DNA of 64,000 nt from an uncultured Bacilli bacterium. Lineage in GTDB: Bacteria; Bacillota_I; Bacilli_A; RF39; UBA660. The first letter of the stretch is position 1, and the number at the start of each line of letters is the position of its first letter. The notes beneath the pieces were generated by a model. The model searched no databases. It was given only the letters and a program-made list of their open reading frames with translations, and was not told where the DNA came from. The position numbers and the translations under genes were made by a program. The stretch covers positions 13,011 to 77,010 of the forward strand of contig CAKPGR010000003.1 of NCBI GenBank assembly GCA_934155005.1, read 5' to 3'. This document shows positions 4,838 through 20,238 of this stretch, one piece after another.

Positions 4838-5479
4838 ATGGCAATGACAGGATTTGATCCAAGTGTTGTTGGAACATCAATTAAAGCAGTAGATAATGCA
4901 TATAAAGAATTAGTTAACCAATTAGGTAATGAAATGCAAACAAAATTTGTAAATGGGATGGCTGATAAGTGGGCATGTGTTAATGCACAAACATTTTTTA
5001 GAGATGCTTTCAAACCATCTGTTGATGAATTAATTAATAATTCAAATAGAGTATTTGAAAGTGTTATTCAAGCTATGAATAGTGCTGGAAGAGCTTGGGC
5101 TAGTAGTACTGGTTCTTCATATTCTCAAGTTTCATTTTCAGTAATTGATAAAAAAATGGATATTGGAAATATTAGGGAAAATATTGGTGGAGTTAGAGGT
5201 ATTGATTTACAATCAACAAATTCAGTAATTAATCAATTACCTGTAATAGCTACATCTGCTGGACAAGCTTTAACTAGTGCTCAACAAGCAGTTCAAAATT
5301 GTGGTTTTATTGGTGGAAATCAAGCAAGTAATTTAATTTCATCACTTGGAACTATAAAATCAAGAATTAATTCGGCTGTAACAGATTTAACTAATGAAGC
5401 TAAAAGTGCTATGGAACAAACCGTTTCTACTTATACAGATACTGAAGGTCAAGTTTCAAAAGCTTTTCAAGCTGAATAA
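4838..5479 (+). CDS. 213-aa helical protein, first gene of the T7SS-like locus; candidate secreted substrate (divergent WXG100-superfamily-like, W-x-G degenerate to W-A-C)
   Basis: Position as first gene behind the locus promoter with very strong RBS. MAM... N-terminus and a KWACVNAQTFFRDAF block align loosely to the NWEGQAFSRFEEQF region of EsxA-type proteins. No TM segments. Confidence 0.35.
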   Translation: MAMTGFDPSVVGTSIKAVDNAYKELVNQLGNEMQTKFVNGMADKWACVNAQTFFRDAFKPSVDELINNSNRVFESVIQAMNSAGRAWASSTGSSYSQVSFSVIDKKMDIGNIRENIGGVRGIDLQSTNSVINQLPVIATSAGQALTSAQQAVQNCGFIGGNQASNLISSLGTIKSRINSAVTDLTNEAKSAMEQTVSTYTDTEGQVSKAFQAE

Positions 5480-5481
5480 TC

Positions 5482-5505: not shown

Positions 5506-5526
5506 AATTATATAAAGGGTGATTTT

Positions 5527-6087
5527 ATGAATATAAAAGTTAGTATATTAAAGACTGAATATGAAAAATTAAATAGATTAATAGAAGACTATAATTTTTC
5601 AATTCTAAATTTATATAATGAATTGTCTTTTTCAGAAAATTATTGGTATGATAAACACTCTTTAACTTTTTTTGACAATGTAAAAGTGGAAAAAAGAAAA
5701 AATTTAAATATGATTTCAGAATTAAATAATATAAAGGATATTTTTGGGTTACTTTTAAACGAATATAGTCAAATTGGTAATAATATTAGTTGCGTTATAG
5801 AAAATAAAAATATGGTTTTAAATCATATTGATGACTATATCAATAGAATTAGAGAAATTATTAACTTATATAATAGATTAAATTTATCTTTTAATCCTAA
5901 GGAAGCTAGTTATTTATATAATCATAAAAATATATTAGAAAATAATTATAGTAATATGCAAAGCATAAGAAACAATGTTAAATATTATTTTGAAAGAATA
6001 GAGAATATTGAACGAGAAGTAAATTTACAATTATCTAGAATTAATATTGAATATTTAAAAGAAACTAATTATAGCGGGGTATTATAA
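5527..6087 (+). CDS. Hypothetical 186-aa soluble helical protein (T7SS locus)
   Basis: Good RBS (AAAGGGTGA); no TM segments; Asn/Ile-rich helical pattern; translationally coupled to the next gene (ATAATG overlap). Confidence 0.5.
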   Translation: MNIKVSILKTEYEKLNRLIEDYNFSILNLYNELSFSENYWYDKHSLTFFDNVKVEKRKNLNMISELNNIKDIFGLLLNEYSQIGNNISCVIENKNMVLNHIDDYINRIREIINLYNRLNLSFNPKEASYLYNHKNILENNYSNMQSIRNNVKYYFERIENIEREVNLQLSRINIEYLKETNYSGVL

Positions 6088-6383
6088 TGAAAAGTATTTT
6101 AAATGAAGAAAATTTAAGACAAAGTATTGAAAAAATTCATATATATCAAAATGATGAAAATAATCAACTATCGAATATTAAAAATATTATGGATGGTATT
6201 GGATATTTTTATTTGTCACAAAATACAAGAAAAATAGATGAAATTAATTTAAATATGAGTAAAAAAATTACAACTATCAAAAATATACATTATAACAATA
6301 TTTATGTTTTAAAGCATAATATATTTAAATATCAAAATATTAAAATACAAGTTGAAAGTAAATTTAACAATATAGTGGGGTAG
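6087..6383 (+). CDS. Hypothetical 98-aa helical protein, WXG100-sized (T7SS locus)
   Basis: Start overlaps the previous stop; RBS AGCGGGGTA; about 100 aa helical, no W-x-G. Confidence 0.45.
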   Translation: MKSILNEENLRQSIEKIHIYQNDENNQLSNIKNIMDGIGYFYLSQNTRKIDEINLNMSKKITTIKNIHYNNIYVLKHNIFKYQNIKIQVESKFNNIVG

Positions 6384-6386
6384 CAT

Positions 6387-6701
6387 ATGAAAAAAGTAAA
6401 AAAGAAAAAGTATATTTCAAAAACTGTGTCTAAAACAAAATATAATATATCAACACCTACAAAAAGCATTAATTATGACAACTATAACAAATTAGCTGTT
6501 GATTTAAACTATATAAGAGTTAAATTTAATGAATTGAATAATAAATATCCAGAAGTTATAAATAATTTAAAGGCTTCAATTTTTATTGATAATCATACAA
6601 TAAATGAAGATAATTTAAATTATATAAATAATGACAATATAAAGATAACTAATGAATTAACAAATATAGTTATTCCATCTATTAAAAATAAAATATATTA
6701 A
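6387..6701 (+). CDS. Hypothetical 104-aa Lys/Asn-rich protein (T7SS locus)
   Basis: RBS AGTGGGGTA similar to that of the preceding gene; no TM. Confidence 0.45.
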   Translation: MKKVKKKKYISKTVSKTKYNISTPTKSINYDNYNKLAVDLNYIRVKFNELNNKYPEVINNLKASIFIDNHTINEDNLNYINNDNIKITNELTNIVIPSIKNKIY

Positions 6702-6759
6702 AAAATTTTAAATTTATTATAAATATTGTTTTTAATTGGAAATAGAAAGGGTGGTAATT

Positions 6760-9700
6760 GTGATAATTTATTTATATTTAGAAGATAAACTATTAACTTT
6801 TAGATTACCTAATCAAATATTAGGAAGTTATTCTTTTGATGAATATGATGAAGAAGAAGATAAACTAATCAATATAGATGCTAAAGATAATAATTGGATT
6901 TTATATTCAACTAAAAATTCACAAATTTTAAATGGAAATAATATTATTCAAAATATTGTTTTAAAGCCTGATAATTTTTATGTTCTAAAAAGAAATAATA
7001 AAAACTATTTGATTTATACAACAAGTAGTTTTAATAATAACAATACACTTTATAAATTTGATGAAAAATTGAATTTGATTGTAGGGAATAGTAATGAATG
7101 TAACATAAATTATCAAATAGGTTTATTAAACGACTGTTTAATAAAAATACACTATGTGAATAATGTTTTAGTCCTAGAAAAAACAGGAAATAGATTAATT
7201 TATATCAATAAAAATGCCTTTAATTTAGCTTCTGTGAGACTTAATTGCGGTACAGAAATTGATATTTATGGTCTTAGAATATATATATTTAATAATATGG
7301 TTTTAATAAACAATCCGGCAAATAGAGTAAAAATAAATGTTCAAGCTTGTTTCTTAACTAATTATTTTATGCCAGAGTTTCAAGAACCTAAAAATATAGA
7401 AATAAAAGATATTGATTTATATAATAAAGATGATTATTTTTTAAAGTCTCCTAGAATTAGAAGATTGATAGAAACAAAAAATATAAAATTAACGTCACCT
7501 CCAAAGACAGAAGAAGAAAAAGATATGCCTTTAATTTTAACCTTAGGACCAATGTTTACTATGGGTATTATCTCCGTTGTTACACTAATAAGTAGTATAT
7601 CAAAAATAATTTCAAAAGAAGCTACTATCGCGGAGTCAATTACATCATTAATTACAGCAGGTGCTATGTTATTATCTATGTTACTTTGGCCCCTGTTAAC
7701 AAATTTTTATAATAAAAAAATTAAATCTAAAAAGTTAAAAGAATCAGTAGATAAATATGAAACATACTTAGAAGAAAAAAGAAAAAGTTTTGAAAAAGAA
7801 GAAAAAATTCAAAGAGATATTTTAAATGAAAATTTACTTTCAACAGAGGAATGTTTCAATATTATAAAAAATAAAAATATTAATTTTTGGAATAAAAGAA
7901 TTGATCAAAATGATTTTTTGAATGTTAGAATTGGTAAAGGTAATCAACTTTTAGATATTAAACTTGATTATCAAGAAGATGATTTTATTTTAGAAAATAA
8001 CACGCTTAGAGAAAAAATAGATAAAATGATTGAAGAATTTAAATATATTGAAAATGTTCCAATAGGTTATTCATTTTACGATAATCCTATAACAGCTATT
8101 ATGGGAAATAGAAATAAATGTATGTCTTTTGTGGATAATTTATTATTACAACTATTATCTTTTTACACATATGAAGACTTAAAAATTGTTTTGTTTACAG
8201 ATTCATTTAAAAAAGATAGATGGGAATATATAAAATATTTAAATCACAATTTTGATAATGAAAGAGATTTTAGATTCTTTTCATCAGACTATGAATCGGC
8301 AAAAACAATAATGGAATATTTAACTTTTGAACTAAATAATAGACTTAGTGTTGAAGGCGCTACATTATATAAGCCACATTATTTCATAGTTGTTGATGGT
8401 TATGATCGTGTAAAACAATTTGATTTTATAAAACAATTAACAGAAACAGATAAAAATCTAGGATTTACTTTGGTAATTATTGAACAAAAAATAGGTAATT
8501 TACCAAGTAAATGTAGTAACTTTATAACTATTGGTCAAAAAACATCAGGACTACTTAAAAACTCATACGAAAAACAAGAAAAAATAGATTTCATAGATGA
8601 AGTAAATAACACCTTTAATATGTTAGATATATCAAAATATTTAGCTAATATTCCAATTGAATTTGAAGAAGGAATTAAACAGTTACCAAATGCTATATCA
8701 TTTTTAGAAATGGAGAAAGTTGGTAAAGTTGAACAATTGAATATACTAAACCGTTGGAATACCAATGACGCTACATCATCACTAAAGGCAGAAGTAGGTG
8801 TGGATGAAAATAATGAATTGATATATCTTGACTTGCATGAAAAATTTCATGGCCCACATGGTTTGATAGCAGGTATGACAGGATCAGGTAAATCAGAATT
8901 TATTATTACTTATATTTTATCTTTAGCTATAAATTATAGTCCTGATGATGTTGAATTTATATTGATAGATTATAAAGGTGGTGGTTTAGCTTTTGCATTT
9001 GAAAATAAAACTACTGGTATGTGTTTACCACATTTAGCTGGGACTATTACAAACTTAGATAAAGCTGAAATGGATAGAACATTAGTAAGTATTGATAGTG
9101 AAATAAAAAGAAGACAAAAAGTATTTAATGATGCTAGAGATAAATTAGGTGAAAGTACAATTGATATATATAAATATCAAAGATTTTATAAAGAAGGTAA
9201 ATTGGATTTACCAGTGCCACATTTATTTATTATTTGTGATGAATTTGCCGAACTAAAAACACAACAACCTGATTTTATGGATAATTTAATTAGTGTAGCT
9301 CGTATTGGTAGATCACTTGGAGTGCATTTGATTTTAGCCACTCAAAAACCAAGTGGTGTTGTTAATGATCAAATTTGGTCAAATACTAAATTTAGAGTTT
9401 GTCTAAAAGTTCAAGATGAATCAGATAGTAAAGAAATGTTAAAAAGACCAGAAGCTGCTAGTTTAAAACAAACAGGTAGATTTTATTTACAAGTTGGATA
9501 TGATGAATTATTCTTATTAGGACAATCAGGGTGGTGTGGCGCTAAATATTACCCATCCGATAAAATAGTAAAGCAAGTTGATAAAAGTATTAATTTTATT
9601 AATGATTGTGGTAATATTATCAGAAGTGCTGAGGCTGGTAGTAATCAAGTTGTTCAAAGTAATGGTGAACAATTATCAGCTATTGTTAATAATATAATTG

Positions 9701-11313
9701 AAGTATCTAATATTACTAATAAAAAAGCTACTAAATTATGGCTTGAAAATATACCTGAGATTATTATTGCTGATGATTTAGAAAAGAAATACAATGTAAA
9801 TTATGAAAGATATAATCCAACAGCTATAATTGGAGAATATGATGCACCTGAAAATCAAGAACAAGGTGTTGTAACTTATAATTTGCTTTCTAATGGTAAT
9901 ACTGTAATTTATGGTATGGATGGTTCCGAAAGAGAGTCATTAATTAATACAATAATTTATTCATCTACTAAAAATTTTAGTGCTGATGAAATAAATTACT
10001 ATATTGTTGATTATGGATCAGAATCATTTAGAAAATATTCAAAATTACCTCATTTAGGTGGAATAGTATTTGCATCAGAAGATGAAAAATATCATAATTT
10101 ATTTAAATTGATAAGAGAAGAATTACAAAAAAGAAAAAAATTATTTGCTGATTTTGGTGGTGAATATACTAACTTTATCCAAAATAGTGAAACTAAATTA
10201 CCAATATATACAATAATACTAAATAACTATGATTCAATTTATGATAGTAATCCTGAAATATATGATGAACTTCCTGATCTTATGAGAGATTCAGAAAGAT
10301 ATGGAATTATCTTTATTATTACTTGTAATGCTGTTAATTCTGTTCAAACTAAATTAACGCAAAATATTAATAATTCATATGCTTTAAAATTAAAAGATTC
10401 ATCTGATTATAGTATGGTATTTGGTAAGAATACAAAAATAATACCAAGAAATATTAATGGTAGAGGATTAGTTATGTTGGATAATATTCACGAATTTCAA
10501 ACTGCTAGCATAGTAAATAAAGACATGGATTTAAATAAATTTATTAATGATTTCATAAATAATGAGAGAATTAAAAATAAAAACAGTATTAATAAAATAC
10601 CTACATTACCAGATATTGTTAGATATAATGATATTTCTAATTATATAAGGGGATTAAATTGTATTCCTATTGGTATCGAAAAAAATGAATTAAACGTTAG
10701 CTTAGTTGATTACACATCTAATATTGGTAATATTATTACTTCAAATAAACTTGTAAATATGGAAAAATTTGTTAAAAGTCTTTTAAATGTTTTCCACAAT
10801 ATAAATAATTTTGACACAATTATTTTTGATGTAAGTAATAGTTTAAAATTAAATAATCAAAATTATCCTAATTATTTTGTAAAAGATGTTGATAAAATGA
10901 TGAATGTTGTAGTTGATTATGTGGAAAAAGAAATTAATAGCGGATCTAGCAAAGAAGGCGTTATTGTTATTTATGGATTAGATAAATTTATGACTAAGCT
11001 ACAAGATAAATCTTTATTAGATAAATTACTTGAAACAGTTAAAAATTATGAACATATGAGTGTGATTATAATTGAAAATGTTTTAAAAATTAAAAAATAT
11101 AATTTTGATACTTGGTTTTCAACATATTTTAATGTTAATGATGGTATATGGATTGGAAGAGGAATAGCTGATCAAAATTTACTTCATTTAGCTTCAATAA
11201 CAAAAGACATGACAGTTGATATTAAAAATGACATGGGATATTATGTCAGCGAAGGAGTAGGCGTTAAAGTTAGATTTATAGATTTTATAACGGAGGATAA
11301 CAATGAAAAATAA
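6760..11313 (+). CDS. essC: Type VII secretion FtsK/SpoIIIE-family ATPase EssC/YukB-like (N-terminal FHA-like region, 2 TM helices, three P-loop domains)
   Basis: About 1517 aa from GTG 6760 (RBS AAAGGGTGG; the track ORF starts at an upstream TTG). TM pair around PLILTLGPMFTMGIISVV...AGAMLLSMLLWPLL. Walker A LIAGMTGSGKSEF in domain 1 (about nt 8875), degenerate IYGMDGSERES in domain 2, and a third NTPase-like domain. Confidence 0.85.
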   Translation: MIIYLYLEDKLLTFRLPNQILGSYSFDEYDEEEDKLINIDAKDNNWILYSTKNSQILNGNNIIQNIVLKPDNFYVLKRNNKNYLIYTTSSFNNNNTLYKFDEKLNLIVGNSNECNINYQIGLLNDCLIKIHYVNNVLVLEKTGNRLIYINKNAFNLASVRLNCGTEIDIYGLRIYIFNNMVLINNPANRVKINVQACFLTNYFMPEFQEPKNIEIKDIDLYNKDDYFLKSPRIRRLIETKNIKLTSPPKTEEEKDMPLILTLGPMFTMGIISVVTLISSISKIISKEATIAESITSLITAGAMLLSMLLWPLLTNFYNKKIKSKKLKESVDKYETYLEEKRKSFEKEEKIQRDILNENLLSTEECFNIIKNKNINFWNKRIDQNDFLNVRIGKGNQLLDIKLDYQEDDFILENNTLREKIDKMIEEFKYIENVPIGYSFYDNPITAIMGNRNKCMSFVDNLLLQLLSFYTYEDLKIVLFTDSFKKDRWEYIKYLNHNFDNERDFRFFSSDYESAKTIMEYLTFELNNRLSVEGATLYKPHYFIVVDGYDRVKQFDFIKQLTETDKNLGFTLVIIEQKIGNLPSKCSNFITIGQKTSGLLKNSYEKQEKIDFIDEVNNTFNMLDISKYLANIPIEFEEGIKQLPNAISFLEMEKVGKVEQLNILNRWNTNDATSSLKAEVGVDENNELIYLDLHEKFHGPHGLIAGMTGSGKSEFIITYILSLAINYSPDDVEFILIDYKGGGLAFAFENKTTGMCLPHLAGTITNLDKAEMDRTLVSIDSEIKRRQKVFNDARDKLGESTIDIYKYQRFYKEGKLDLPVPHLFIICDEFAELKTQQPDFMDNLISVARIGRSLGVHLILATQKPSGVVNDQIWSNTKFRVCLKVQDESDSKEMLKRPEAASLKQTGRFYLQVGYDELFLLGQSGWCGAKYYPSDKIVKQVDKSINFINDCGNIIRSAEAGSNQVVQSNGEQLSAIVNNIIEVSNITNKKATKLWLENIPEIIIADDLEKKYNVNYERYNPTAIIGEYDAPENQEQGVVTYNLLSNGNTVIYGMDGSERESLINTIIYSSTKNFSADEINYYIVDYGSESFRKYSKLPHLGGIVFASEDEKYHNLFKLIREELQKRKKLFADFGGEYTNFIQNSETKLPIYTIILNNYDSIYDSNPEIYDELPDLMRDSERYGIIFIITCNAVNSVQTKLTQNINNSYALKLKDSSDYSMVFGKNTKIIPRNINGRGLVMLDNIHEFQTASIVNKDMDLNKFINDFINNERIKNKNSINKIPTLPDIVRYNDISNYIRGLNCIPIGIEKNELNVSLVDYTSNIGNIITSNKLVNMEKFVKSLLNVFHNINNFDTIIFDVSNSLKLNNQNYPNYFVKDVDKMMNVVVDYVEKEINSGSSKEGVIVIYGLDKFMTKLQDKSLLDKLLETVKNYEHMSVIIIENVLKIKKYNFDTWFSTYFNVNDGIWIGRGIADQNLLHLASITKDMTVDIKNDMGYYVSEGVGVKVRFIDFITEDNNEK

Positions 11314-11566
11314 AGTTTTAGTAAAAGTAATGATGCCAGAAATGGATTTAACATTTGATATTTTTATTCCAGTTAATGAATTAGTTTGGAAAATAAAAAA
11401 ATTGATAATTAAATGTGTTTCAGATATTACCTGTTATCCATTAGATATAAAAGAAGAATATTATTTAGTAAATAAAAGTAATGGTAATTTTTATAATAAT
11501 AATGATGTTGTTATAAATACAGATATTAGAAATAGTACCGAATTAATATTAGTGTCAAAAGTATAA
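11303..11566 (+). CDS. esaB: Small ubiquitin-like (beta-grasp) protein, YukD/EsaB-like
   Basis: 87 aa, overlaps the essC stop by 11 nt; size, alternating beta-strand pattern and position next to essC fit the YukD/EsaB family. Confidence 0.45.
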   Translation: MKNKVLVKVMMPEMDLTFDIFIPVNELVWKIKKLIIKCVSDITCYPLDIKEEYYLVNKSNGNFYNNNDVVINTDIRNSTELILVSKV

Positions 11567-11595
11567 AAAATATTATATAGAAGAGGAGAAATTTT

Positions 11596-11934
11596 ATGAC
11601 TTATGAAAAATTTTTACCAATAGGAACTGTTGTTATATTGAAAGGAGGTTCTAAAAGGTGTATGATTACCGGTTTTTGCGTAACTGGTGATAAAGATGAA
11701 AACATGTATGATTATTGCGGTGTTTTATATCCAGAAGGAGTTTTATCATCTAATCAAACTTTGATGTTTAATCATAATCAAATAGATAAACTTTATCATT
11801 TAGGTTTTATTGATGATGAGGAAAAACAATTTAAATTGAAATTAAATGAAATTATAAATAATACTAAGAGTGATATTTCAAATAATAATCAACAAATAAA
11901 TAATATAACAAATCAATCTAATAATATAAATTAA
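11596..11934 (+). CDS. DUF4176-like protein (T7SS-associated family)
   Basis: N-terminus MTYEKFLPIGTVVILKGGSKRCMITGF matches the LPIGSVV-LK-GG...MI-G signature I associate with DUF4176; Asn/Gln-rich tail. Confidence 0.45.
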   Translation: MTYEKFLPIGTVVILKGGSKRCMITGFCVTGDKDENMYDYCGVLYPEGVLSSNQTLMFNHNQIDKLYHLGFIDDEEKQFKLKLNEIINNTKSDISNNNQQINNITNQSNNIN

Positions 11935-11978
11935 GAAAATATCATTGATTTATAATAAAATAGAAAAGGAAGTGAGTT

Positions 11979-14432
11979 ATGTCTGATGTAAGTAAGATAT
12001 CAGGTAATATAACACCAAATTTGAACAATTTTGGTAATATAGTTAAAAAGTCAATATCTAATAGTGTTACAGGCTTACAAGGCATGCCTCAAGACCAAGT
12101 AACTTCAACAGTGGATTTGTCATCTTTTGTAGATGTTAAAGAAAATATTACTGATGCATTTCAAAAATTCTCTGTTTCTTATGATGAGACGGCTACTAAA
12201 ATAGCTGATAAGGCAGAAAGTAAAATAGGTGAAATGCTTAGAAAACTGGATTCTTATCAAAAAGAAGCTAATGATTGGTGGAACAATGAAGCAAAGCCAT
12301 TCTTTGATAAAGCCGCAAAAAATATTGAAAAGGCATACATAGAGTCAGCTGCTATTCAAACTAGAGTTGATAGTACAGCAGCGACAGCAGTATTATCAGT
12401 TGGTGAAGGTATTTTTAAAGTGGGAGAGTGGGTTGTAGATGGAGGCGCTATAGTTGCAACAGCATGTGATTCCCTTCAAACCTTGGCTATTGATTTAGGA
12501 AAATACGTTGGATGTAAAGTAACTAATCAAGAGTTTGAATCTGAAACAGCTAAAATGTGGAATAATACAAAAGATTTTGTTTCAAATGACTTTGTTGGTG
12601 GAGCATTTGATAAATTTTATGATAATACAAAAGTTGGAAATTATTTAAAGAAAAGTTCCTATGCTTTTGATAATACGCGTGAATTTGGTAAAGGATTTGG
12701 GGAAGCTATTGGTGTAATAGCTATATCTGCTTTAACATTTGGAGCAGGTGGTGCAGCAATAGGAGGTGCAGGTGCAGCTGGATCTGCTGGTGTTTTTGGA
12801 AGTAGTGCAGCGCAACTTGGAGTAACAGCCGGTGCAGTAGGATTTGGTAAAGGATCAGAAAAAGCATGGTCTGATGGTGCTGGTATAGCTGAGGGATTAG
12901 CTACTGGTGCAGCTACTGGTGCTTGGGAAGGATTTCAATGGTTTATTGGTGGTAAAATTGGTGGCTCTAACATTGCTGGTGAGTCTCATAAAGTATTAAA
13001 TAGTTTATCAAGAATTGTTTTAGATGGTATAGATGGTGGTGTGGAAGGATTCACACAACCAGTTATTAATTCAATATATCAAAAAGGATATTATGATGAA
13101 AATGATATTTATGTAGAATTTGATGAAGAAGATAATTATGTTGACAAAGTAAAAGAATTATATGATGATAATGGTGGATGGAATAGTGTTCGTCAAGGAT
13201 TTATAATGGGATCTGTTATGTCTGCACTTGGTGAAGTATCAGGTGGAGTCAAACAACTTAAAAATGAAGGTAAAACAAAACCTAATAAAATTGATAATGA
13301 TGTAAAAATAAAATCAGTTGATAGTGGTCAAAATAAAAATACAATAACATTTGAAGAATATCAAAATATGAAAAAAGAAGTTGATGTTAAATCTTTACAA
13401 GAAAGACTTGATAAATTAAGAAAAATAATTGATACTGATGAATATAGAAGGTATACTGAAAGAAATAAACAACATGAAGCTCAAGTTTTAAGACCTGATT
13501 TTGACAATATAGATAAAGAAATAGCTTCAATTGAGACCAAATTAGCGAGTAATCCTATTTCTAAAAAAATAGAAAAAACATTAAAAGATGAAATCAATTC
13601 TTTGATAAATAAAACTGATGATGTTGAAACAAAAGCTAGAAAATTATATGTTGAATTGAATAAAAGAGTTTCCTATGATTTTAATTATATTAAGGGTAAT
13701 AAGGAAGTACAACAAGAACTTTTAAATAGAAAAGTTACATTTGATAATATGAAAAATAACGAGGTTGTATGTAAGGGTTGGTCAGATTTATTTAATGAAC
13801 TTTTAAAAGATAATGGTATTGATTCTAAAATCGTTTCTACATCTAAAAAATCGCATTATTGGGTTGAAATTAATTTAGAAGATAGTATAATAATTGCTGA
13901 TGCAACAGATGCTTTAGGTATTGGTGGACCGGATTTAAGTAATTGCAAGAATGGATTTTCAACATTGGGGTTTGTTAAGACACATAAAGGTATGTCAAAT
14001 ACAAGATTAAAAAATATGTATGATAATAATCCAGGAGTTGAAGAGGCGGTTAAGAGCCAATGGAAAAAAGTTGATAGTAAAATTGAATATAATAATAATG
14101 GGGCTTATTTAGAAGACATTGTTGAAAAATCAAGAGAATTATTTGGAAAAAATAATTCAAACAATGATACTAGTTTATTTAAACTAGATATTCCAGATAA
14201 ATCAGATGGTTATAGCTTATTTGGTTATTTGAACAAGATGAAAGAAATTACTGGAAATAGTACTGCAAATATAAATTATGGATTTTTCAAAAATGGTAAT
14301 AATTACGAGTTTACAACAATACTTACCGAAAATAATAATTATATGGTATGTAATAATTCAATTGGAAAGAAAATATTTGATAATTTTATAGATTTTGATA
14401 ATTTTCTTCATTCAAATAATATTTCAAGATGA
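11979..14432 (+). CDS. Large T7SS-type polymorphic toxin candidate: N-terminal helical domain, Gly/Ala-rich glycine-zipper segment, C-terminal transglutaminase-like cysteine protease domain
   Basis: 817 aa. Gly-zipper GAGGAAIGGAGAAGSAGVFGSSAAQLGVTAGAVGFGKG at about nt 12700-12990. C-terminal VVCKGWSDLFNELLKDNGIDSKIVS...KSHYWVEINLED...IIIADATDA matches the transglutaminase core pattern C-x-x-[WFY]...G-I...H-x-W-V-E...D-x-T. Confidence 0.6.
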   Translation: MSDVSKISGNITPNLNNFGNIVKKSISNSVTGLQGMPQDQVTSTVDLSSFVDVKENITDAFQKFSVSYDETATKIADKAESKIGEMLRKLDSYQKEANDWWNNEAKPFFDKAAKNIEKAYIESAAIQTRVDSTAATAVLSVGEGIFKVGEWVVDGGAIVATACDSLQTLAIDLGKYVGCKVTNQEFESETAKMWNNTKDFVSNDFVGGAFDKFYDNTKVGNYLKKSSYAFDNTREFGKGFGEAIGVIAISALTFGAGGAAIGGAGAAGSAGVFGSSAAQLGVTAGAVGFGKGSEKAWSDGAGIAEGLATGAATGAWEGFQWFIGGKIGGSNIAGESHKVLNSLSRIVLDGIDGGVEGFTQPVINSIYQKGYYDENDIYVEFDEEDNYVDKVKELYDDNGGWNSVRQGFIMGSVMSALGEVSGGVKQLKNEGKTKPNKIDNDVKIKSVDSGQNKNTITFEEYQNMKKEVDVKSLQERLDKLRKIIDTDEYRRYTERNKQHEAQVLRPDFDNIDKEIASIETKLASNPISKKIEKTLKDEINSLINKTDDVETKARKLYVELNKRVSYDFNYIKGNKEVQQELLNRKVTFDNMKNNEVVCKGWSDLFNELLKDNGIDSKIVSTSKKSHYWVEINLEDSIIIADATDALGIGGPDLSNCKNGFSTLGFVKTHKGMSNTRLKNMYDNNPGVEEAVKSQWKKVDSKIEYNNNGAYLEDIVEKSRELFGKNNSNNDTSLFKLDIPDKSDGYSLFGYLNKMKEITGNSTANINYGFFKNGNNYEFTTILTENNNYMVCNNSIGKKIFDNFIDFDNFLHSNNISR

Positions 14433-14450
14433 TGATAGGGATGATAATTT

Positions 14451-14711
14451 ATGGATAAAATAATTGAACTTTTAGAGCGTAAAAAAGGCAAAATAAATAC
14501 AGATTTAGATTTAGAAAAATATAATCATATAAAAGAAATTATTAAACATGAAGATATATTTTTTTATCTTGATATGTCAACAGTACTTGGGATTTTAGAA
14601 TTTTTAGATGTAGAACCTGATGAAAGATTAAAGTTATATTATTCTTTAACTTCAATGGAAAATTATGAAAAAAATATTCCAAATGTTAGAATTATTAATG
14701 GAAAAAAATAG
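14451..14711 (+). CDS. Small 86-aa protein immediately downstream of the toxin; candidate immunity protein
   Basis: Position only; no TM; acidic. Confidence 0.3.
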   Translation: MDKIIELLERKKGKINTDLDLEKYNHIKEIIKHEDIFFYLDMSTVLGILEFLDVEPDERLKLYYSLTSMENYEKNIPNVRIINGKK

Positions 14712-14715
14712 AAAA

Positions 14716-14738
14716 AAATGGAAATTATTTTTCCATTT
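14716..14738. terminator. Bidirectional terminator between the convergent toxin/immunity operon and the VanY-like genes
   Basis: aaatggaaa/tttccattt stem flanked by an A-run upstream and a T-run downstream. Confidence 0.6.
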
Positions 14739-15399
14739 TTTTATATTCTTCTAATGTTTTATTATTTTCATGTAAATATTTAGCTAATTTCTTTCCAACA
14801 TATCTATAATGCCAAGGTTCATATTTAAACCCTGTAATTCTTTCTTTATTTTTAGGATACCTTAAAATAAAACCATACTTATGAGCATTTTTTATCATCC
14901 AATTAAATTCTTTTGATTCTTCAAATAAATTATAATCATCATTAGACCCCATTACATCAACTGCTAAACCTGTTTGATGCTCAGAGTGACCTGGTTTAGC
15001 AGATGCTTTTAAAGCATAATCTAAGCCTTTTTCTTTTACATAATAATTAAATAATTCATCTTGATATTCATAACTTCTATAAGCGGATACAGCAGTAATA
15101 TTATATTCCTTTTTTTTAGCATCTCTACTTAAAGCTTCAAAATTAATAGCAGCACATCTTCTCAAAAACTTATTTTGATTGGAGTATATAACATCTAATT
15201 TTATTAAATCATCAGGTTTATAATTACTATTTAATTTATTATTTTTATTAACTAAAACATCAATTTTATTAGGGTTATCAATTGTCTTAACATTTTTATA
15301 AAATTTAGGCCCAAAAATATTTAAATCCTTAGTATAAAAAAACAAAATAAGTAAAATGAGAATAAAATAAAAACAAAATTTAAAAAATTTTAAACTCAT
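14725..15399 (-). CDS. Membrane-anchored D-alanyl-D-alanine carboxypeptidase, peptidase M15B/VanY family (paralog 1)
   Basis: N-terminal TM; SAYRSYEYQ, HSEHQTGLAVDV and EPWHYRYVG motifs of VanY-type zinc peptidases. Confidence 0.8.
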   Translation of the reverse strand: MSLKFFKFCFYFILILLILFFYTKDLNIFGPKFYKNVKTIDNPNKIDVLVNKNNKLNSNYKPDDLIKLDVIYSNQNKFLRRCAAINFEALSRDAKKKEYNITAVSAYRSYEYQDELFNYYVKEKGLDYALKASAKPGHSEHQTGLAVDVMGSNDDYNLFEESKEFNWMIKNAHKYGFILRYPKNKERITGFKYEPWHYRYVGKKLAKYLHENNKTLEEYKKMEK

Positions 15400-15438
15400 A
15401 ATCTCACCACTATATTATATGAAAAAATGTTAAGTAGT

Positions 15439-16512
15439 TTACTTAACATAATATTCATAATACTCTTCAAAAGTTAAATTCTTTTCAAATATCATTTTAG
15501 CAGCTTCAATTCCAACGTATCTATAATGCCATGACTCATATATATATCCTGTTATATTAACTTTATCCTTAGGATATCTTAAAATAAAACCATATTTATA
15601 AGCATTCTCTTTTAACCAAGTAAATTCCTTAGTTGTTTCAAAATTTCCAAGAGTTGTAGTAGGAGTAGTAACATCAAAAGCAAGACCTGTTTGATGTTCA
15701 GAATAACCAGGACGAGCTGAATAAGTATCAGCTTTATTATAACCATCAACAGAAGCATAATTTTCATATAATGAATTTTGTGTTTTAAAACTTCTGTAAG
15801 GTGATCTAATATATAGATTTAAATTTTTATTTTTAGCGTCTTTCCACATTTTTTTATAAGCGTCATATACAGTACTATTTAAATACTTACCACTAACTCC
15901 ATAAGTGGATTCTATTTCAACTAAATCACTAGGAATATAGTCATCATCTAACTTGTTATATTTATTAACTAGAATTAAAAAGCCCTTAGATAAATCAGTC
16001 TTTTTAACGTTAGTATAATAATTATAATCTCTACCACTATTAACCATTGTAATAATATTACTTACATCATCACTATCATAAGCTAAATATCTATCTAAAT
16101 TATCCATTTTAAAATATTTGCTTTTCATTAAAGAAATGGTTTTATCAGTATAAGTTATATTTTTATCAAAAAAGTTATTATTAACAACATAAATAATATC
16201 ATCTAAATTAAAATTATATACATTCATAAATTCAATATATTTATCTAAATTATCTTCCTTAAAATCTTTATTTTTTATCAGTTCAATATATTTTTTATTA
16301 TAATCATAATTTAATAATTTCTCTGGATCTTTTAAATTATTTATAATTTTAATATCACTATTAGAATAACCTACATTTTTAAATTTATCGTTTAAAGATA
16401 TAGGTTTATTAGAAATTAAAAAGATGATAATTAAAATAATTAATATAATAACTGGAATAATAAATACACTTTTCTTTAGTTTTCTTTTTTTCATTTTATC
16501 ACTTATCCTCAT
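15439..16512 (-). CDS. Peptidase M15B/VanY family (paralog 2) with extra N-terminal domain
   Basis: N-terminal TM; SPYRSFKTQ, YSEHQTGLAFDV, ESWHYRYVG; shares NLDRYLAY motif with paralog 3. Confidence 0.8.
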   Translation of the reverse strand: MRISDKMKKRKLKKSVFIIPVIILIILIIIFLISNKPISLNDKFKNVGYSNSDIKIINNLKDPEKLLNYDYNKKYIELIKNKDFKEDNLDKYIEFMNVYNFNLDDIIYVVNNNFFDKNITYTDKTISLMKSKYFKMDNLDRYLAYDSDDVSNIITMVNSGRDYNYYTNVKKTDLSKGFLILVNKYNKLDDDYIPSDLVEIESTYGVSGKYLNSTVYDAYKKMWKDAKNKNLNLYIRSPYRSFKTQNSLYENYASVDGYNKADTYSARPGYSEHQTGLAFDVTTPTTTLGNFETTKEFTWLKENAYKYGFILRYPKDKVNITGYIYESWHYRYVGIEAAKMIFEKNLTFEEYYEYYVK

Positions 16513-16636
16513 ATTAAATTATAACACGTATAATAAAAAATGTTAAATAAATATATTAAACAAAATAAAAAAATTTAGAAATTATGTCTATAATATTAAT
16601 AAAATCTAGAAGGTCACAAAAAAAGTTAATTATTTA

Positions 16637-17581
16637 TTAACTTTTTTCAATATAATATGCATAGTATTCATCGTAAGTGATATTTTCTTTATGTATTTTC
16701 AAAGCCATATCTTTTCCAACATATCTATAATGCCAAGGTTCATAATCATATCCAGTTATGTCCTCTTTTCCTTTTGGATATCTTAAAATAAAACCGTATT
16801 TATAAGCATTTTCTTTTAACCATTTACTTTCATTTGAATCATCAAAATTATCCATTGTACTATTATAAGTTACAATATCAAGCGCTAAACCTGTTTGATG
16901 TTCAGAATATCCAGGACGAGCTGCATATAAATCAGCCCATTTTTCACCATTTTTAGTAGCATATCTGTTCCATATACTATCTTGGTCTTCATAAGACCTA
17001 TAAGAAGCATTAACAATTAAATTAAGACCTTTTAATTTAGCTGCTTTATACATTTCTATAAAAGCATCAACAACTTCTTTATTCGCTTTATTATCAGCAA
17101 AAGCATAAGTTGTACCAATATTTATTATGTCAGTAGCTTCATAAGATTTATCTAAATGATAAAATTTATTTATTAACATTAAGTTTCCTAAACTTGTATC
17201 AGTTTCTTTAATAGCGTCTTCATCATACCATTCATAGTCTGCTCCTACATTAACAATACTTACAACATGTGACATTTTATCATTTTTATTTTCTTTATAA
17301 TAAGCCAAATATCTATCTAAATTTTTATATAAAAAGTATTTTTGTTTTACAAAAGAAACTAGTGATTTACTATATTTTTTTGTTAAAACGTCATCAATTT
17401 CTTTATCTTTAAGTTTAAGTATTATTTTTATTTCACTATCATCATAACCAATTTTACCTAATTTATATTCATAACTATTTATATATTTTATGTATTTAAA
17501 ACATCCAATACTTGCTATTATGATAAAAATAATAAGTCCAATTAAAATATAAAATGATTTTTTTAATCTTCTTTTTTTCAT
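16637..17581 (-). CDS. Peptidase M15B/VanY family (paralog 3) with extra N-terminal domain
   Basis: N-terminal TM; ASYRSYEDQ, YSEHQTGLALDI, EPWHYRYVG. Confidence 0.8.
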   Translation of the reverse strand: MKKRRLKKSFYILIGLIIFIIIASIGCFKYIKYINSYEYKLGKIGYDDSEIKIILKLKDKEIDDVLTKKYSKSLVSFVKQKYFLYKNLDRYLAYYKENKNDKMSHVVSIVNVGADYEWYDEDAIKETDTSLGNLMLINKFYHLDKSYEATDIINIGTTYAFADNKANKEVVDAFIEMYKAAKLKGLNLIVNASYRSYEDQDSIWNRYATKNGEKWADLYAARPGYSEHQTGLALDIVTYNSTMDNFDDSNESKWLKENAYKYGFILRYPKGKEDITGYDYEPWHYRYVGKDMALKIHKENITYDEYYAYYIEKS

Positions 17582-17667
17582 AGTATCACCTAATTTAATT
17601 ATAACAAATATTTAAAATAATACAATAAATTTTATAAATAAAGCCATAATATGAATAGGTGAAAAAT

Positions 17668-18186
17668 ATGAATTTAATTTTTTTATGTATAAAAATATTT
17701 TTTGTAAGAATTTTAGATGTATCACTTGGAACAGTAAGATCAATTGTAACTATAAAAGGACAAATTAAAGTAGCTAGTATAATTGGTTTTATTGAAGTCT
17801 TTGTATGGTTTGTAGTTGTAAAAGAAGCTTTGAGCACAACAAATAATAGTATTTTTATAGCTATATCATATGCTTTTGGCTTTGCAACAGGAACATATAT
17901 TGGTGGTTTAATATCTAATCGTTTTATAAAAATTAAACTTGGTATTACAGCTATATTATCAAAAAAAGATAATGAATTAGTTAAAATGATTAGAAAAAAT
18001 GGCTTTGCTGTTAGCGTTATAGATGTTAAAGGACAAAATTTATTAGATTCAAAATATATGCTTTTTATTGAAATAGAAAGTGATAGGTATAATGAATTAA
18101 CTAAATTAATAAAAAATTTAGACAATAATGCTTTTATTGTTGTAAATGAAACTAAATATGTTCATAATGGTTATTTTGCTAAATAA
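17668..18186 (+). CDS. UPF0316/DUF2179-family small membrane protein
   Basis: N-terminal LDVSLGTVRSIVTIKG and 3-4 TM helices followed by a GFAVSVIDVKGQN...MLFIEIE C-terminal domain typical of UPF0316 proteins; ATG 17668 with AGGTGA RBS. Confidence 0.5.
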   Translation: MNLIFLCIKIFFVRILDVSLGTVRSIVTIKGQIKVASIIGFIEVFVWFVVVKEALSTTNNSIFIAISYAFGFATGTYIGGLISNRFIKIKLGITAILSKKDNELVKMIRKNGFAVSVIDVKGQNLLDSKYMLFIEIESDRYNELTKLIKNLDNNAFIVVNETKYVHNGYFAK

Positions 18187-18254
18187 TAATTGATTTAATC
18201 TTAAAAAAATGTTAAAATTACTTTGTAAAGCAATTATGAAAGATAAGTAATAAA

Positions 18255-18420
18255 TATGTTATTTAATAGAGAGTTAGTGTTAGGTGGAAACTAATAGTAA
18301 TAATTTATGAAATCTACTTTCTAGTGAAATTAATCATTTCCGGGTAAAACCGTTATCTAAATTAAGCTATTAGTAGGATGGTACCGCATTTTTTATGCTC
18401 CTATACTGATAGCTTTTTTG
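18255..18420 (+). promoter_or_regulatory. T-box riboswitch-like leader (candidate Ser specifier) upstream of the GNAT-serS pair
   Basis: AGAGAG stem-I-like element at about 18268; candidate specifier UCU-A in gaaatctac; T-box-like sequence attagtaggatggtaccgc at 18364-18387 matching AAnnnGGGTGGnACCGCG; U-run at 18388-18393. Confidence 0.45.
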
Positions 18421-18432
18421 TAGGAGGAAATT

Positions 18433-18906
18433 ATGAGTGATGGAATAGTAACCTTAATTAGAAATAGTACATTATCTGAAAATGATGATTTATCTATTAG
18501 TCAAGCAGAATGTTTTGATATTATGGTTGGTAATAAATTTGTTGGTGTTATCTCTTATAGATATCATGGTGACTTACATTATATTGATTATGGAGGTAAT
18601 ATTAATTACCGGATTATAGAAAAAGAAAGAGGACATGGTTACGCTAAAAGAGCTTTAAAAATTATGCTTAATATTTTGAAGTATAATACAAAGTTTGATG
18701 AACCTTTATATGTTGCATCAACTACATATAATGATGACTATTTAAATGTGGCAACCGAGTGTGGTGGTAAATTAATATATGAAGGTCTTGTTCCAGATAA
18801 TTTAATATCACCTAAAATAGATCAAGAAATGAAAAATATAAAATTATATGAATTTGTAATTGAAAAAGAAAGGAAGAAAGAAAATGATAGACATAAAGTT
18901 AATTAG
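18433..18906 (+). CDS. GNAT-family N-acetyltransferase-like protein
   Basis: 157 aa; ERGHGYAKRALKIMLN resembles the GNAT motif A (R-x-x-G-x-G/A); RBS AGGAGG. Confidence 0.45.
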   Translation: MSDGIVTLIRNSTLSENDDLSISQAECFDIMVGNKFVGVISYRYHGDLHYIDYGGNINYRIIEKERGHGYAKRALKIMLNILKYNTKFDEPLYVASTTYNDDYLNVATECGGKLIYEGLVPDNLISPKIDQEMKNIKLYEFVIEKERKKENDRHKVN

Positions 18907-20161
18907 AGAAAATAAGGAATTAGTAAAAGAAAATATAAAGAAAAAATTTCAAAATCATAAATTAGTTCTTGTTGATGAAATATATGATTTAGATTTAGAA
19001 TTTAGAAAAGTTAAACAAGAAGTGGAAAAATTAAAAAGTGATAAAAATAACAAAAGTAGCGAAATAGGATCTTTAATGCGTGAAGGAAAAAAAGACGAGG
19101 CAAATAAAATAAAAGAAGAAATAGTAGCTTATAATGAAAAAATTAATGAATTAGATGAAAAACAAGTTTCACTTGAAAAAGAAATAAAAGAAAAAATGAT
19201 GGTTATTCCAAATATAATTGACTCTTCTGTACCAATTGGTGAAGATGATACTAAGAATGTCGAAATTGAAAAATTTGGTGAGCCAGTTGTTCCAGACTAC
19301 GAAATTCCATATCATGCTGATATTATAAATGCATTAAATGGAATGGATAAGGATGCTGCTGGAAGAACAAGTGGTCAAGGTTTTTATTATTTACTAGGAA
19401 ATATAGCAAGACTTCATGAAGCAATGCTTGCTTATGCTAGAGATTTTATGATTGATAAGGGATTTACGTATGCAATACCACCATTTATGATTAGAAAAAA
19501 TGTTGTAGAAGGCGTTATGAGTTTTGAAGAAATGGATGCTATGATGTACAAAATTGAAGGTGAAGATTTATATTTAATTGGTACTAGTGAACATTCTATG
19601 ATTGGTAAATTTAAAGATCAAATAATAAAAGAGGAAGAACTTCCTATTGCTATGACTTCATATTCTCCATGCTTTAGAAAAGAAGGTGGATCTCATGGAC
19701 TTGAAGAAAGAGGACTTTATAGAGTTCACCAATTTGAAAAACAAGAAATGATTGTTTTATGTAAAGAAGAAGATGCAATGAATTTTTATAATAAGATGTG
19801 GAAATATACAGTTGACTTTTTCAGAAGCTTAGATGTTCCTGTTAGAACACTTGAATGTTGTAGTGGTGATCTTGCTGATCTTAAAGTAAAATCTTGTGAT
19901 GTTGAAGCATGGAGCCCAAGACAACAAAAATATTTTGAAGTTGGATCTTGTTCTACATTAGGTGATGCACAAGCTAGAAGACTTGGAATAAGAGCTAAAG
20001 GTAAAGATGGAAATTATTATGTAAATACCTTAAACAATACTGTTGTAGCAACTCCAAGAGGGTTAATTGCTGTTATTGAAAACAATTATCAAAGTGATGG
20101 ATCTATAAAAGTTCCAAAAGTATTACAACCTTATATGGGAGGAATAGAGGTTATAAAATAA
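18884..20161 (+). CDS. serS: Seryl-tRNA synthetase
   Basis: About 425 aa from ATG 18884 (the track ORF begins at an upstream TTG). N-terminal coiled-coil arm, class II motifs (FRKEGGSHGLEERGLYRVHQFEKQE; motif 3 GSCSTLGDAQARRLGIRAK). Confidence 0.85.
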   Translation: MIDIKLIRENKELVKENIKKKFQNHKLVLVDEIYDLDLEFRKVKQEVEKLKSDKNNKSSEIGSLMREGKKDEANKIKEEIVAYNEKINELDEKQVSLEKEIKEKMMVIPNIIDSSVPIGEDDTKNVEIEKFGEPVVPDYEIPYHADIINALNGMDKDAAGRTSGQGFYYLLGNIARLHEAMLAYARDFMIDKGFTYAIPPFMIRKNVVEGVMSFEEMDAMMYKIEGEDLYLIGTSEHSMIGKFKDQIIKEEELPIAMTSYSPCFRKEGGSHGLEERGLYRVHQFEKQEMIVLCKEEDAMNFYNKMWKYTVDFFRSLDVPVRTLECCSGDLADLKVKSCDVEAWSPRQQKYFEVGSCSTLGDAQARRLGIRAKGKDGNYYVNTLNNTVVATPRGLIAVIENNYQSDGSIKVPKVLQPYMGGIEVIK

Positions 20162-20218
20162 AGTATAATATGTTAAATAGATAAAAATTCGTAAGAGATT
20201 ATTATTTGACATCAAAAA

Positions 20219-20238
20219 AAAGATATTAATTTATCTTT
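20219..20238. terminator. Bidirectional terminator between serS and the convergent kinase-like gene
   Basis: aaagata/tatcttt stem flanked by A8 and T9 runs; contains the stop codon of the minus-strand gene. Confidence 0.55.

Follow-up and report, generated by a model that had tools for sequence, protein, structure and literature searches.

The present analysis concerns a stretch of 64,000 nucleotides from an uncultured Bacilli bacterium (GTDB lineage Bacteria, Bacillota_I, Bacilli_A, RF39, UBA660), corresponding to positions 13,011 to 77,010 of contig CAKPGR010000003.1 in the GenBank assembly GCA_934155005.1 and referred to here as the window. Two adjacent open reading frames (ORFs) on its forward strand, one encoding a protein of 817 amino acids (aa; 11979..14432) and the other a protein of 86 aa (14451..14711), had been singled out in an initial annotation, made from the sequence alone, as a secreted toxin candidate and its putative immunity gene; both are present as annotated, and each is preceded by a Shine-Dalgarno-like sequence. 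Our conclusion, held with a probability of roughly 80%, is that the adjacent type VIIb secretion system exports the 817-aa protein as a polymorphic antibacterial toxin and that the 86-aa ORF encodes its cognate immunity protein.

One line of evidence for this reading is a natural exchange between closely similar strains. A homologue search with the full-length protein found a relative (P0003) that shares 98% identity with the 817-aa protein along its first 57% and has a different C-terminus. The contig encoding this relative (L001) is syntenic with the window, sharing four small genes, the genes for EssC, an EsaB-like protein and a DUF4176 protein, three VanY genes and serS, and in a BLASTN comparison the two are 97.5% identical across window positions 4789-13377 and 98.7% identical across positions 14712-21000. 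The window segment between these blocks, 13378-14711, is replaced in L001 by an unrelated segment of 1753 bp. What has been replaced is exactly aa 467-817 of the toxin together with the 86-aa ORF, and at this place L001 has an unrelated ADP-ribosyltransferase-type end and a 111-aa ORF. The left breakpoint is sharp: it falls between codons 466 and 467 (nucleotides (nt) 13377/13378), in a charged linker formed by aa 436-526 (13284..13556, forward strand), where at nt 13378 identity to L001 drops from 28-30 to 7-12 matches per 30 nt. On the right, the breakpoint coincides with the stop codon of the 86-aa ORF. At the protein level, aa 1-466 of the two toxins are 98% identical and the sequences are unrelated beyond, and the 111-aa product is unrelated to the 86-aa protein (E 8.8). 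The toxin end and the small ORF have been exchanged as one cassette (13378..14711, forward strand). As to the nature of the alternative toxin end, the database record of P0003 lists PF03496 (an ADP-ribosyltransferase family); our Pfam scan of this protein at E ≤ 0.05 gave no match, PF03496 included.

Polymorphic toxin-immunity systems are defined by the joint replacement of a toxin end and the small ORF behind it (Zhang et al. 2012, PMC3482391), and two features by which such systems are recognized are found here, i.e. a constant N-terminal part combined with variable ends among close relatives, and a downstream ORF that varies together with the end. Other relatives of the N-terminal part terminate in ADP-ribosyltransferase, HD, HExxH-type, transglutaminase-like or still other C-termini.

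The exchanged end of the window protein bears a predicted catalytic module of ~290 residues (aa 527-817, 13557..14429, forward strand), whose assignment as transglutaminase-like rests on a Pfam match, family conservation, an AlphaFold model and Foldseek comparisons. An exhaustive profile search against 1.84 billion cluster representatives retrieved 501 of them at E ≤ 1e-3, with 98 reaching E ≤ 1e-30, and in nearly all cases the module was placed at the extreme C-terminus of proteins 700-5100 aa long; a word-index homologue search with the C-terminal part alone returned just one protein and thus under-reports the family relative to the profile search. Five of the relatives (P0004-P0007 and P0023) share aa ~527-817 with the window protein at 34-40% identity and have the Cys, His and Asp residues of the predicted catalytic triad unchanged. 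In an alignment of 156 members, Cys598 (codon 13770-13772) is conserved in 147 of 147 sequences, His626 (codon 13854-13856) in 151 of 152 and Asp641 (codon 13899-13901) in 150 of 152, all on the forward strand, with Trp601, Thr643, Asp652 and Lys657 near-invariant as well. Homologues lacking the triad had been named in the initial annotation as an outcome that would speak against a catalytic domain; the residues are instead essentially invariant. The motifs it quoted do occur in the protein (VVCKGWSDLF from aa 596, SHYWVE from aa 625 and IIADATD from aa 638), except that they lie at aa 596-644, that is 174-222 residues from the C-terminus, and not within the last ~70 residues as had been thought. 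Likewise, the proposed G-x-C-x-x-[FWY] context of the cysteine holds for the C-x-x-W part, there being no G-x-C (the sequence reads VVCKGW). The triad residues are spaced 28 (Cys to His) and 15 (His to Asp) positions apart, similar to the spacing in peptide:N-glycanase (PNGase), which we take to be 27 and 17 residues.

Recognition of this module by existing family models is patchy. The Pfam model Transglut_core (PF01841) matches the window protein marginally (aa 544-634, E 2.7e-5, scoring 24.8 bits where the cutoff is 23) and also passes in P0032 (32.7 bits) and P0087 (23.1 bits); NCBIfam contains no model matching the C-terminal module, and a single-sequence search of the PDB with the C-terminal part gave nothing meaningful. 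Marginal as the lone Pfam match is, it is more than a chance hit, for the module belongs to a conserved family with invariant Cys, His and Asp, and on sequence grounds this family appears to be a divergent transglutaminase-like branch that present annotation largely misses.

The fold prediction agrees with this assignment. An AlphaFold model of the module built on a 46-sequence alignment has a predicted local distance difference test (pLDDT) value of 94 and a predicted template modelling (pTM) score of 0.92. In the numbering of this model, the cysteine (residue 72) starts the helix 72-85, the histidine (100) directly precedes the strand 101-106 and the aspartate (115) follows the strand 110-114, so that in the predicted structure the three residues occupy the canonical secondary-structure positions of papain and transglutaminases. 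Beyond these elements the model has a helical region and a beta subdomain of four strands, which a helix at the C-terminus caps. It supersedes an earlier model based on four sequences (pLDDT 76), which gave weak matches to arylamine N-acetyltransferases and vasohibins. Foldseek searches of the PDB with the current model placed at the top the Streptococcus pyogenes protein TglA (9crn; E 5e-3, probability 1.0) and a structure described as 'a TGase' (4xz7; E 1.4e-2, probability 1.0); behind them came arylamine N-acetyltransferases, LapG, vasohibins and CPR-C4. All matches of meaningful probability are thus transglutaminase-like, and none of the matches reaches E < 1e-3. In a profile search of the PDB the best match was yeast PNGase (E 0.077, not significant), with the family Cys and His aligned to chain positions 184 and 211, presumably the catalytic Cys191 and His218. 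Taken together, three independent and individually weak lines of evidence, combined with the very strong conservation of the triad, support a transglutaminase-like fold at marginal significance.

The other half of the exchanged cassette, the 86-aa protein, follows the module with great regularity. We scanned one genome per GTDB species and obtained 23 loci with the toxin module, the best genome matches being only 30-37% identical; apart from two bins under the label Muribaculaceae, one under Clostridium and one without classification, they come from metagenome-assembled genomes (MAGs) of uncultured gut Bacilli or Mycoplasmatota incertae sedis. Homologues of the 86-aa protein were detected by a hidden Markov model (HMM) scan directly downstream of the module in 21 of these loci (E 1e-13 to 1e-28), the exceptions being one contig end and one protein with an internal module. 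The loci of P0004-P0007 (L006-L009) illustrate the rule, the ORF immediately after the toxin gene encoding a 92-93-aa homologue (BLASTP E 1e-15, 4e-12). A word-index search with the 86-aa protein returned only the protein itself, and it was the HMM scan of the loci that revealed the larger family, which has a conserved core, FFK.D..TA.GIL.FLG.PE....Y..LISPE.Y, and gave no match in Pfam or the PDB. The family accompanies the module even in toxins without the Gly-rich domain described below, e.g. in L012, L015, L022 and L028. Pairwise distances among the toxin modules and among the 86-aa homologues are correlated (r = 0.43, Mantel p = 2e-4), which provides only mild support for co-evolution. The 86-aa protein is acidic (pI 5.4) and has neither a signal peptide, a lipobox, a transmembrane helix nor any hydrophobic segment. 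Given its linkage to the module, its joint replacement with the toxin end and its predicted solubility, the 86-aa ORF most likely encodes a cytoplasmic immunity protein, and the effector-immunity layout originally read from gene order is borne out both by the strain-level swap and by the 21 loci. By extension, a soluble immunity candidate suggests a cytoplasmic target for the toxin. Two of the loci deserve a separate comment. L013 and L018 are titled 'uncultured Muribaculaceae' (Bacteroidota) and yet carry a Gram-positive type VII toxin, a DUF4176 gene and, in L018, EssC; they are probably mis-binned. We also note that in P0078 (L025:2188-8730), a protein of 2181 aa, the module is internal (aa 1272-1521) and the flanking regions hold no immunity homologue.

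The part of the toxin that stays constant between the strains is built of an N-terminal region (aa 1-124, 11979..12350, forward strand), which lacks a signal peptide and presumably serves type VII targeting, and a conserved hydrophobic Gly/Ala-rich domain (aa 125-435, 12351..13283, forward strand). The latter domain occurs in 38 of the 156 module-bearing proteins analysed and also in toxins with other ends, the ends found paired with it being of the ADP-ribosyltransferase, HD, HExxH and transglutaminase-like types. Its helices at ~aa 136-170 are moderately hydrophobic, while a transmembrane-like stretch at ~aa 236-270 is strongly so (Kyte-Doolittle maximum 1.92); the domain also includes the Gly/Ala-rich portion, aa 236-335 (12684-12983, forward strand; 29% Gly, 22% Ala, 11 GxxxG). 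It is this portion, including the string GAGGAAIG at aa 255, that had been interpreted as a membrane-inserting glycine zipper. The richness in Gly and Ala is real, and a run of glycines (Gly306, Gly310, Gly314 and Gly318) is conserved across relatives; the number of GxxxG motifs is explained by composition, as it does not exceed that in composition-matched shuffles (p = 0.10), and the segment is not peculiar to this toxin but belongs to a putative delivery domain common to toxins with other warheads. As a side observation, the linkers of P0003-P0010 hold, between the Gly-rich domain and the toxin end, one to three copies of a ~50-aa repeat (consensus IEEQIAAANYYTGKGNFYTIKVNSLDDIP.D.W.KI), seen e.g. 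in the L001 and L006 toxins and absent from the window protein.

The initial annotation had found no obvious LXG motif in the N-terminal region, and we concur. The LXG domain (PF04740) was detected neither in the window protein at E ≤ 0.1 nor among 34 relatives of its N-terminal part at E ≤ 0.01; an L-Q-G tripeptide is present at aa 33-35 without any LXG-domain match around it. Profile and single-sequence searches of the PDB with the N-terminal part retrieved no LXG structures and no sequence relative, aa 1-124 matching generic helical bundles. Since the 34 relatives likewise showed no PT-TG or other Pfam match and no LXG structure was retrieved, we rejected membership of the N-terminus in either the LXG or the PT-TG family.

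A gene for a small DUF4176 protein (112 aa, 11596..11934, forward strand; PF13780, E 1e-27), a likely toxin-specific chaperone of the Ltc family, ends 45 nt upstream of the toxin gene. DUF4176 genes lie directly upstream of 11 of 16 toxins with the Gly-rich domain and of none of five toxins without it (Fisher p = 0.012), and the DUF4176 proteins of the window and L006 are 60% identical as compared to ~35% for the toxins. Members of the 'small' DUF4176 class (93-119 aa) occupy this place in the window and in homologous loci, a position immediately upstream of the toxin that has been reported for the 'large' Ltc chaperones (PMC12478183). According to Gkragkopoulou et al. (2025, PMC12478183), the large DUF4176 proteins (Ltc) are chaperones that bind the hydrophobic middle domains of LXG toxins, namely those toxins whose destination is the target-cell cytoplasm, and the authors speculated that small DUF4176 proteins likewise bind hydrophobic helices. 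The simplest reading of the co-occurrence pattern is that the Gly-rich domain would be a chaperone-bound delivery domain and not the warhead, possibly one that mediates membrane translocation.

The order essC, esaB, DUF4176, toxin that had been proposed for the locus is confirmed. EssC (6736..11313, forward strand), an FtsK/SpoIIIE-type ATPase of the type VIIb kind, is recognised by two family models (TIGR03928 T7_EssCb_Firm, 961 bits against a cutoff of 778; PF01580, E 1.6e-38), its gene ending 666 nt upstream of the toxin gene. The gene that follows it (11303..11566, forward strand), in the position of EsaB/YukD, encodes an 87-aa ubiquitin-like protein with a weak family match (E 8e-5, below cutoff); its homologues (E 1e-6 to 1e-36) are small proteins adjoining EssC or WXG100 genes in 16 other loci. 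Among the 23 genome loci, EssC is encoded within 6 kb of the module in 13, and at least one type VII-associated gene lies within that distance in 18.

Two layouts recur. One begins with EsaB, followed by a pair of WXG100 genes, a pair of small WXG-related genes, a 161-aa gene, DUF4176, toxin, immunity gene and EssC; in L006-L010, L014 and L027, WXG100-related proteins of 97 and 111 aa and the 161-aa protein precede DUF4176 and the toxin. The other, represented by the window, consists of genes for 213-, 186-, 98- and 104-aa proteins followed by EssC, EsaB, DUF4176, toxin and immunity gene. The first gene of the window cluster (w213; 4838..5479, forward strand) encodes a conserved helical protein of 213 aa without a Pfam or NCBIfam family, whose homologues (E 1e-22 to 1e-83) adjoin EssC or sit directly upstream of toxins in L019, L021, L022, L025 and L028. 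Three small helical proteins of 186 aa (5527-6087), 98 aa (6087-6383) and 104 aa (6387-6701) follow on the same strand (5527..6701); none of them belongs to a curated family, and all recur with w213 in L011, L019, L021, L022 and L025. The w213 protein has one invariant Trp in a WXG-like D-K-W-A-C motif and may be either a core substrate of the EsxA/WXG-like kind or a factor for targeting; its identification as a WXG100 protein proper was rejected, the hhalign comparison being not significant (E 0.074). The 186-, 98- and 104-aa proteins are candidates, by position only, for Lap-like targeting factors. In both the L006-L010 and the window clusters, EssC and an EsaB-like gene are present with no recognisable EssB, EsaA or EssA near them.

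From these elements a working scheme can be assembled. The toxin would be made in the cytoplasm, its sequence showing no signal peptide, and the small DUF4176 chaperone would keep the hydrophobic aa 125-435 domain soluble, as the co-occurrence of the two and the published work on the chaperone family suggest. Targeting of the toxin to EssC would fall to the N-terminal region, probably in concert with the cluster's small helical proteins. In a neighbouring Gram-positive cell the hydrophobic domain might, speculatively, help the C-terminal module across the membrane. There the module, predicted with marginal fold support to be a transglutaminase-like (papain-superfamily) thiol enzyme using Cys598, His626 and Asp641, would covalently damage a conserved cytoplasmic protein, while in the producer the 86-aa protein would bind the module 1:1 and shield the cell, as the strict gene linkage and the joint cassette replacement suggest. 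As regards the chemistry, the initial annotation had gone as far as calling the domain a transglutaminase-like cysteine protease. The transglutaminase-like part of this designation is supported; proteolysis is one of several chemistries that the fold allows, and we favour it tentatively as a first choice, at somewhat less than even odds. Deamidation or transamidation of Gln would be our second choice, a possible but doubtful one, and some other acyl-transfer reaction strikes us as no more probable than that.

Several observations weigh against our interpretation. The match to PF01841 is marginal in the window protein and fails in P0004, P0007 and P0023, and the Foldseek matches, all above E 1e-3, are weak, with TM scores of 0.26-0.29 over 117-141 columns. 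Distances among the immunity proteins correlate with those among the N-terminal domains at r = 0.56, so that the toxin-immunity value given above is not clearly higher. The window cluster holds no recognisable LXG, WXG100, EssB, EsaA or EssA, so that it is by position that export is ascribed to the window EssC. This apparatus might be exceptionally small, or else its remaining parts might be encoded at some other place. The literature searched describes no transglutaminase-like or cysteine-protease toxin of type VII or LXG systems. Finally, the family includes standalone cytoplasmic paralogues of ~475 aa with intact Cys, His and Asp (L033:5001-6428, L034 and L035; the P0098 cluster; P0103, P0107-P0112 and P0118), which sit amid housekeeping genes, flanked by prfB and a gene for an aminoacyl-tRNA synthetase. 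Neither type VII genes nor a homologue of the 86-aa protein lie near these paralogues, and they lack signal peptides. Their existence without an immunity gene implies that the activity need not kill in every context. The module activity may be tolerated when regulated, and the toxin may be derived from a housekeeping enzyme. A bolder version of our interpretation would build on these very points: the Gly-rich domain and the small DUF4176 protein would constitute a distinct non-LXG module for delivery and membrane translocation in a minimal type VII system specific to uncultured gut Bacilli with reduced genomes, comprising EssC, the EsaB-like protein and novel helical proteins in the absence of EssB, EsaA, EssA and WXG100, and the warhead would be a housekeeping enzyme, of the kind represented by the ~475-aa paralogues, weaponised against an essential target not exploited before and with a chemistry new to type VII toxins. 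We regard this combination as rather unlikely.

The most obvious competing explanation takes the glycine-rich domain itself as the weapon and relegates the transglutaminase-like module to an accessory, processing or binding role. TelE, an LXG toxin of Streptococcus gallolyticus whose toxicity depends on a glycine-zipper motif, provides the precedent, for it too is a substrate of type VIIb secretion and has a segment that is rich in glycine and looks membrane-active, and the Gly/Ala-rich composition of aa 236-335, the transmembrane-like segment and the conserved run from G306 to G318 would all suit a pore-former. TelE, however, is described as forming pores through its C-terminus, i.e. its warhead, whereas the Gly-rich segment of the window protein lies outside the exchanged C-terminal cassette, in a conserved domain shared by toxins with different C-termini and different small ORFs, and the strain-level swap exchanges only the C-terminal module and the small ORF. 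Furthermore, the immunity family keeps to the transglutaminase-like module even where the Gly-rich domain is missing, the immunity protein is soluble and not a membrane protein, and the invariance of the triad argues that the transglutaminase-like domain is not an inactive one. Membrane damage by the hydrophobic domain thus appears to us quite improbable. We attach similarly little credence to an enzyme acting from outside on the cell wall, as an amidase or endoisopeptidase cutting the peptidoglycan cross-links of the target in the manner of PeiW or of NlpC/P60-type effectors. Papain-superfamily peptidoglycan amidases are indeed common among interbacterial effectors (Zhang et al. 2012, PMC3482391), three VanY carboxypeptidase genes adjoin the locus, and a profile search of the PDB gave a match to PeiW, a transglutaminase-like pseudomurein endoisopeptidase. 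That match is nevertheless weak and not significant (E 0.75), and the VanY genes stand equally beside the ADP-ribosyltransferase-type variant and are therefore not linked to the cassette; an immunity protein without a signal peptide, lipobox or transmembrane helix could not meet an extracellular toxin, and the standalone paralogues lack signal peptides as well.

A polymorphic type VIIb toxin remains preferable also when the presumed victim is changed from a bacterium to a eukaryote. Transglutaminase-type domains (Tox-TGase) have been described mostly from effectors aimed at eukaryotic hosts, such as AvrPphE/HopX, lpg2408 and RtxA domains (Zhang et al. 2012, PMC3482391), and the carriers of the present module are gut-associated MAGs, so that a host-directed effector modifying eukaryotic proteins has to be considered. 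Yet a dedicated and strictly linked immunity gene implies a toxin to which its own producer is sensitive, near-identical strains differ in the cassette, and a type VIIb cluster with a DUF4176 chaperone is of the type used in interbacterial antagonism (PMC12478183); we consider a role against the host highly improbable. Least credible of all is the idea that no toxin is involved and that the module is a housekeeping or regulatory protein-modifying enzyme mounted on a secreted scaffold, with the 86-aa protein as its cofactor or substrate. The ~475-aa paralogues, with their intact triad and their place between aminoacyl-tRNA synthetase and release-factor genes, are what speaks for it. It is at odds with the occurrence of the module at the C-terminus of very diverse giant proteins, with its interchangeability with an ADP-ribosyltransferase toxin end and with the type VII-associated genes nearby in 18 of the 23 loci, and the architecture as a whole is diagnostic of polymorphic toxins (PMC3482391).

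Among known systems, the closest parallels to the window locus are the type VIIb LXG toxins with Ltc chaperones, exemplified by the Streptococcus intermedius pairs TelA/LtcA and TelB/LtcB (PMC12478183, PMC10801868). The two have in common a location next to essC, a DUF4176 gene immediately upstream of the toxin gene and an immunity gene downstream, as well as a toxin composed of an N-terminal targeting region, a hydrophobic middle and a variable, exchangeable C-terminal toxin end. Unlike the LXG toxins, the window protein and its relatives have no detectable LXG domain, and the window cluster shows no recognised WXG100, EssB, EsaA or EssA; unlike in TelA/LtcA, the chaperone in the 'large' Ltc position is of the 'small' DUF4176 class. 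The middle parts differ as well, that of TelA and TelB being intrinsically disordered when alone and binding the chaperone through an amphipathic helix, whereas the window protein has a conserved Gly/Ala-rich hydrophobic domain of ~310 aa. With respect to the warhead, the nearest category is Tox-TGase (Zhang, de Souza, Anantharaman, Iyer and Aravind 2012, PMC3482391), which likewise employs a papain-superfamily Cys-His-Asp domain at the C-terminus. The described examples (AvrPphE, RtxA, lpg2408) are mainly host-directed, whereas the window family comes with an immunity partner of its own in a type VII setting, and it is so divergent that PF01841 misses the majority of its members.

For the possible action of the module, Cpe1-Cpi1 (PMC12136450) may be the best functional analogy. 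Cpe1 is a papain-like cysteine protease toxin of Escherichia coli, delivered by a type VI secretion system or by contact-dependent inhibition, that cleaves GyrB and ParE; the likeness consists in an interbacterial thiol-enzyme toxin acting on essential cytoplasmic proteins and countered by a small cytosolic immunity protein. It differs in its Gram-negative mode of delivery and in that the immunity proteins are unrelated, and the absence of Cpe1 structures among the best 50 Foldseek matches in the PDB indicates a different branch of the superfamily. The solved transglutaminase-like structures, i.e. TglA (9crn), 4xz7, PNGase (1x3w), LapG (4fgp), arylamine N-acetyltransferases and vasohibins, resemble the modelled module in their core fold and in the order in which Cys, His and Asp occur. 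Between 117 and 141 residues superpose, at 14% identity and with TM scores of at most 0.29, and those structures have no counterpart to the helical cap at the N-terminus of the module or to its beta-rich subdomain at the C-terminus (~aa 760-817). A literature search on S. pyogenes TglA found nothing.

Type VIIb toxins, their chaperones and their immunity proteins are well known as architectures, and the locus is best described as an experimentally tractable toxin-immunity pair of uncultured gut bacteria rather than a conceptual surprise. The antibacterial type VIIb toxins characterised so far include nucleases, NADases, a lipid II phosphatase, membrane depolarisers, ADP-ribosyltransferases and lipases. 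Transglutaminase-type warheads as such were catalogued in 2012 as Tox-TGase (PMC3482391). What appears to be new, judging from sequence comparisons, is a toxin family and an immunity family within this known kind of system, neither of which, nor the Gly-rich domain, has a dedicated Pfam or NCBIfam model. The locus defines a large toxin-domain family (~500 sequence clusters) mostly outside current Pfam annotation and a corresponding immunity family that matches nothing in Pfam or the PDB. In the reference-genome scan both families turned up only in uncultured low-GC gut Bacilli, which suggests contact-dependent warfare among poorly known commensals. Identifying the substrate could expose a new vulnerable cellular process, and the strict toxin-immunity pairing offers a ready-made inhibitor for structural work. 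The pairing of the Gly-rich domain with a small DUF4176 protein would permit a direct test of the role of small DUF4176 proteins, which the 2025 PNAS study of Ltc left open (PMC12478183). Further interest attaches to the combination of no detectable LXG domain, a small DUF4176 protein in the Ltc position and an apparently minimal apparatus.

It remains to describe the surroundings of the cluster. The window is strongly AT-rich (GC content ~20-32%), and the cluster is flanked by gatCAB on one side and by three convergent VanY genes and serS on the other. Neither tRNA genes nor Rfam families (at the gathering threshold) were found across the 64-kb window, which contains many housekeeping genes, and no T-box was detected upstream of serS; the window also holds no orphan toxin ends and no additional immunity genes elsewhere. 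We considered an anti-phage defence function or a prophage origin and rejected both, PADLOC and PHROGs having returned nothing relevant (the PHROGs match of the DUF4176 protein is to a family of no known function). The bidirectional terminator proposed in the initial annotation to follow the 86-aa ORF is likely real. An A7-hairpin-T7 element at 14712-14743, with the sequence AAAAAAATGGAAATTATTTTTCCATTTTTTT, folds at -14.9 kcal/mol (z = -3.75) and is likely shared with the convergent VanY gene; a consensus terminator scanner made no call at this site because the element has too few G-C pairs (fewer than three).

The three VanY-type D-Ala-D-Ala carboxypeptidase paralogues (224, 357 and 314 aa) lie in tandem on the reverse strand at 14725-17581 and are in parts ~70-75% identical to one another at the DNA level. 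They accompany both toxin variants and thus fall outside the cassette. At the opposite end of the cluster (window 1-4789), synteny with the sister strains (L001:1-1991 and L002:1-1476) fails just upstream of the 213-aa gene, where the window has gatCAB and L001 and L002 have different, unannotated genes for products of 98, 207 and 332 aa. Since the gene content upstream of the 213-aa gene differs among strains, the left border of the cluster is variable as well.

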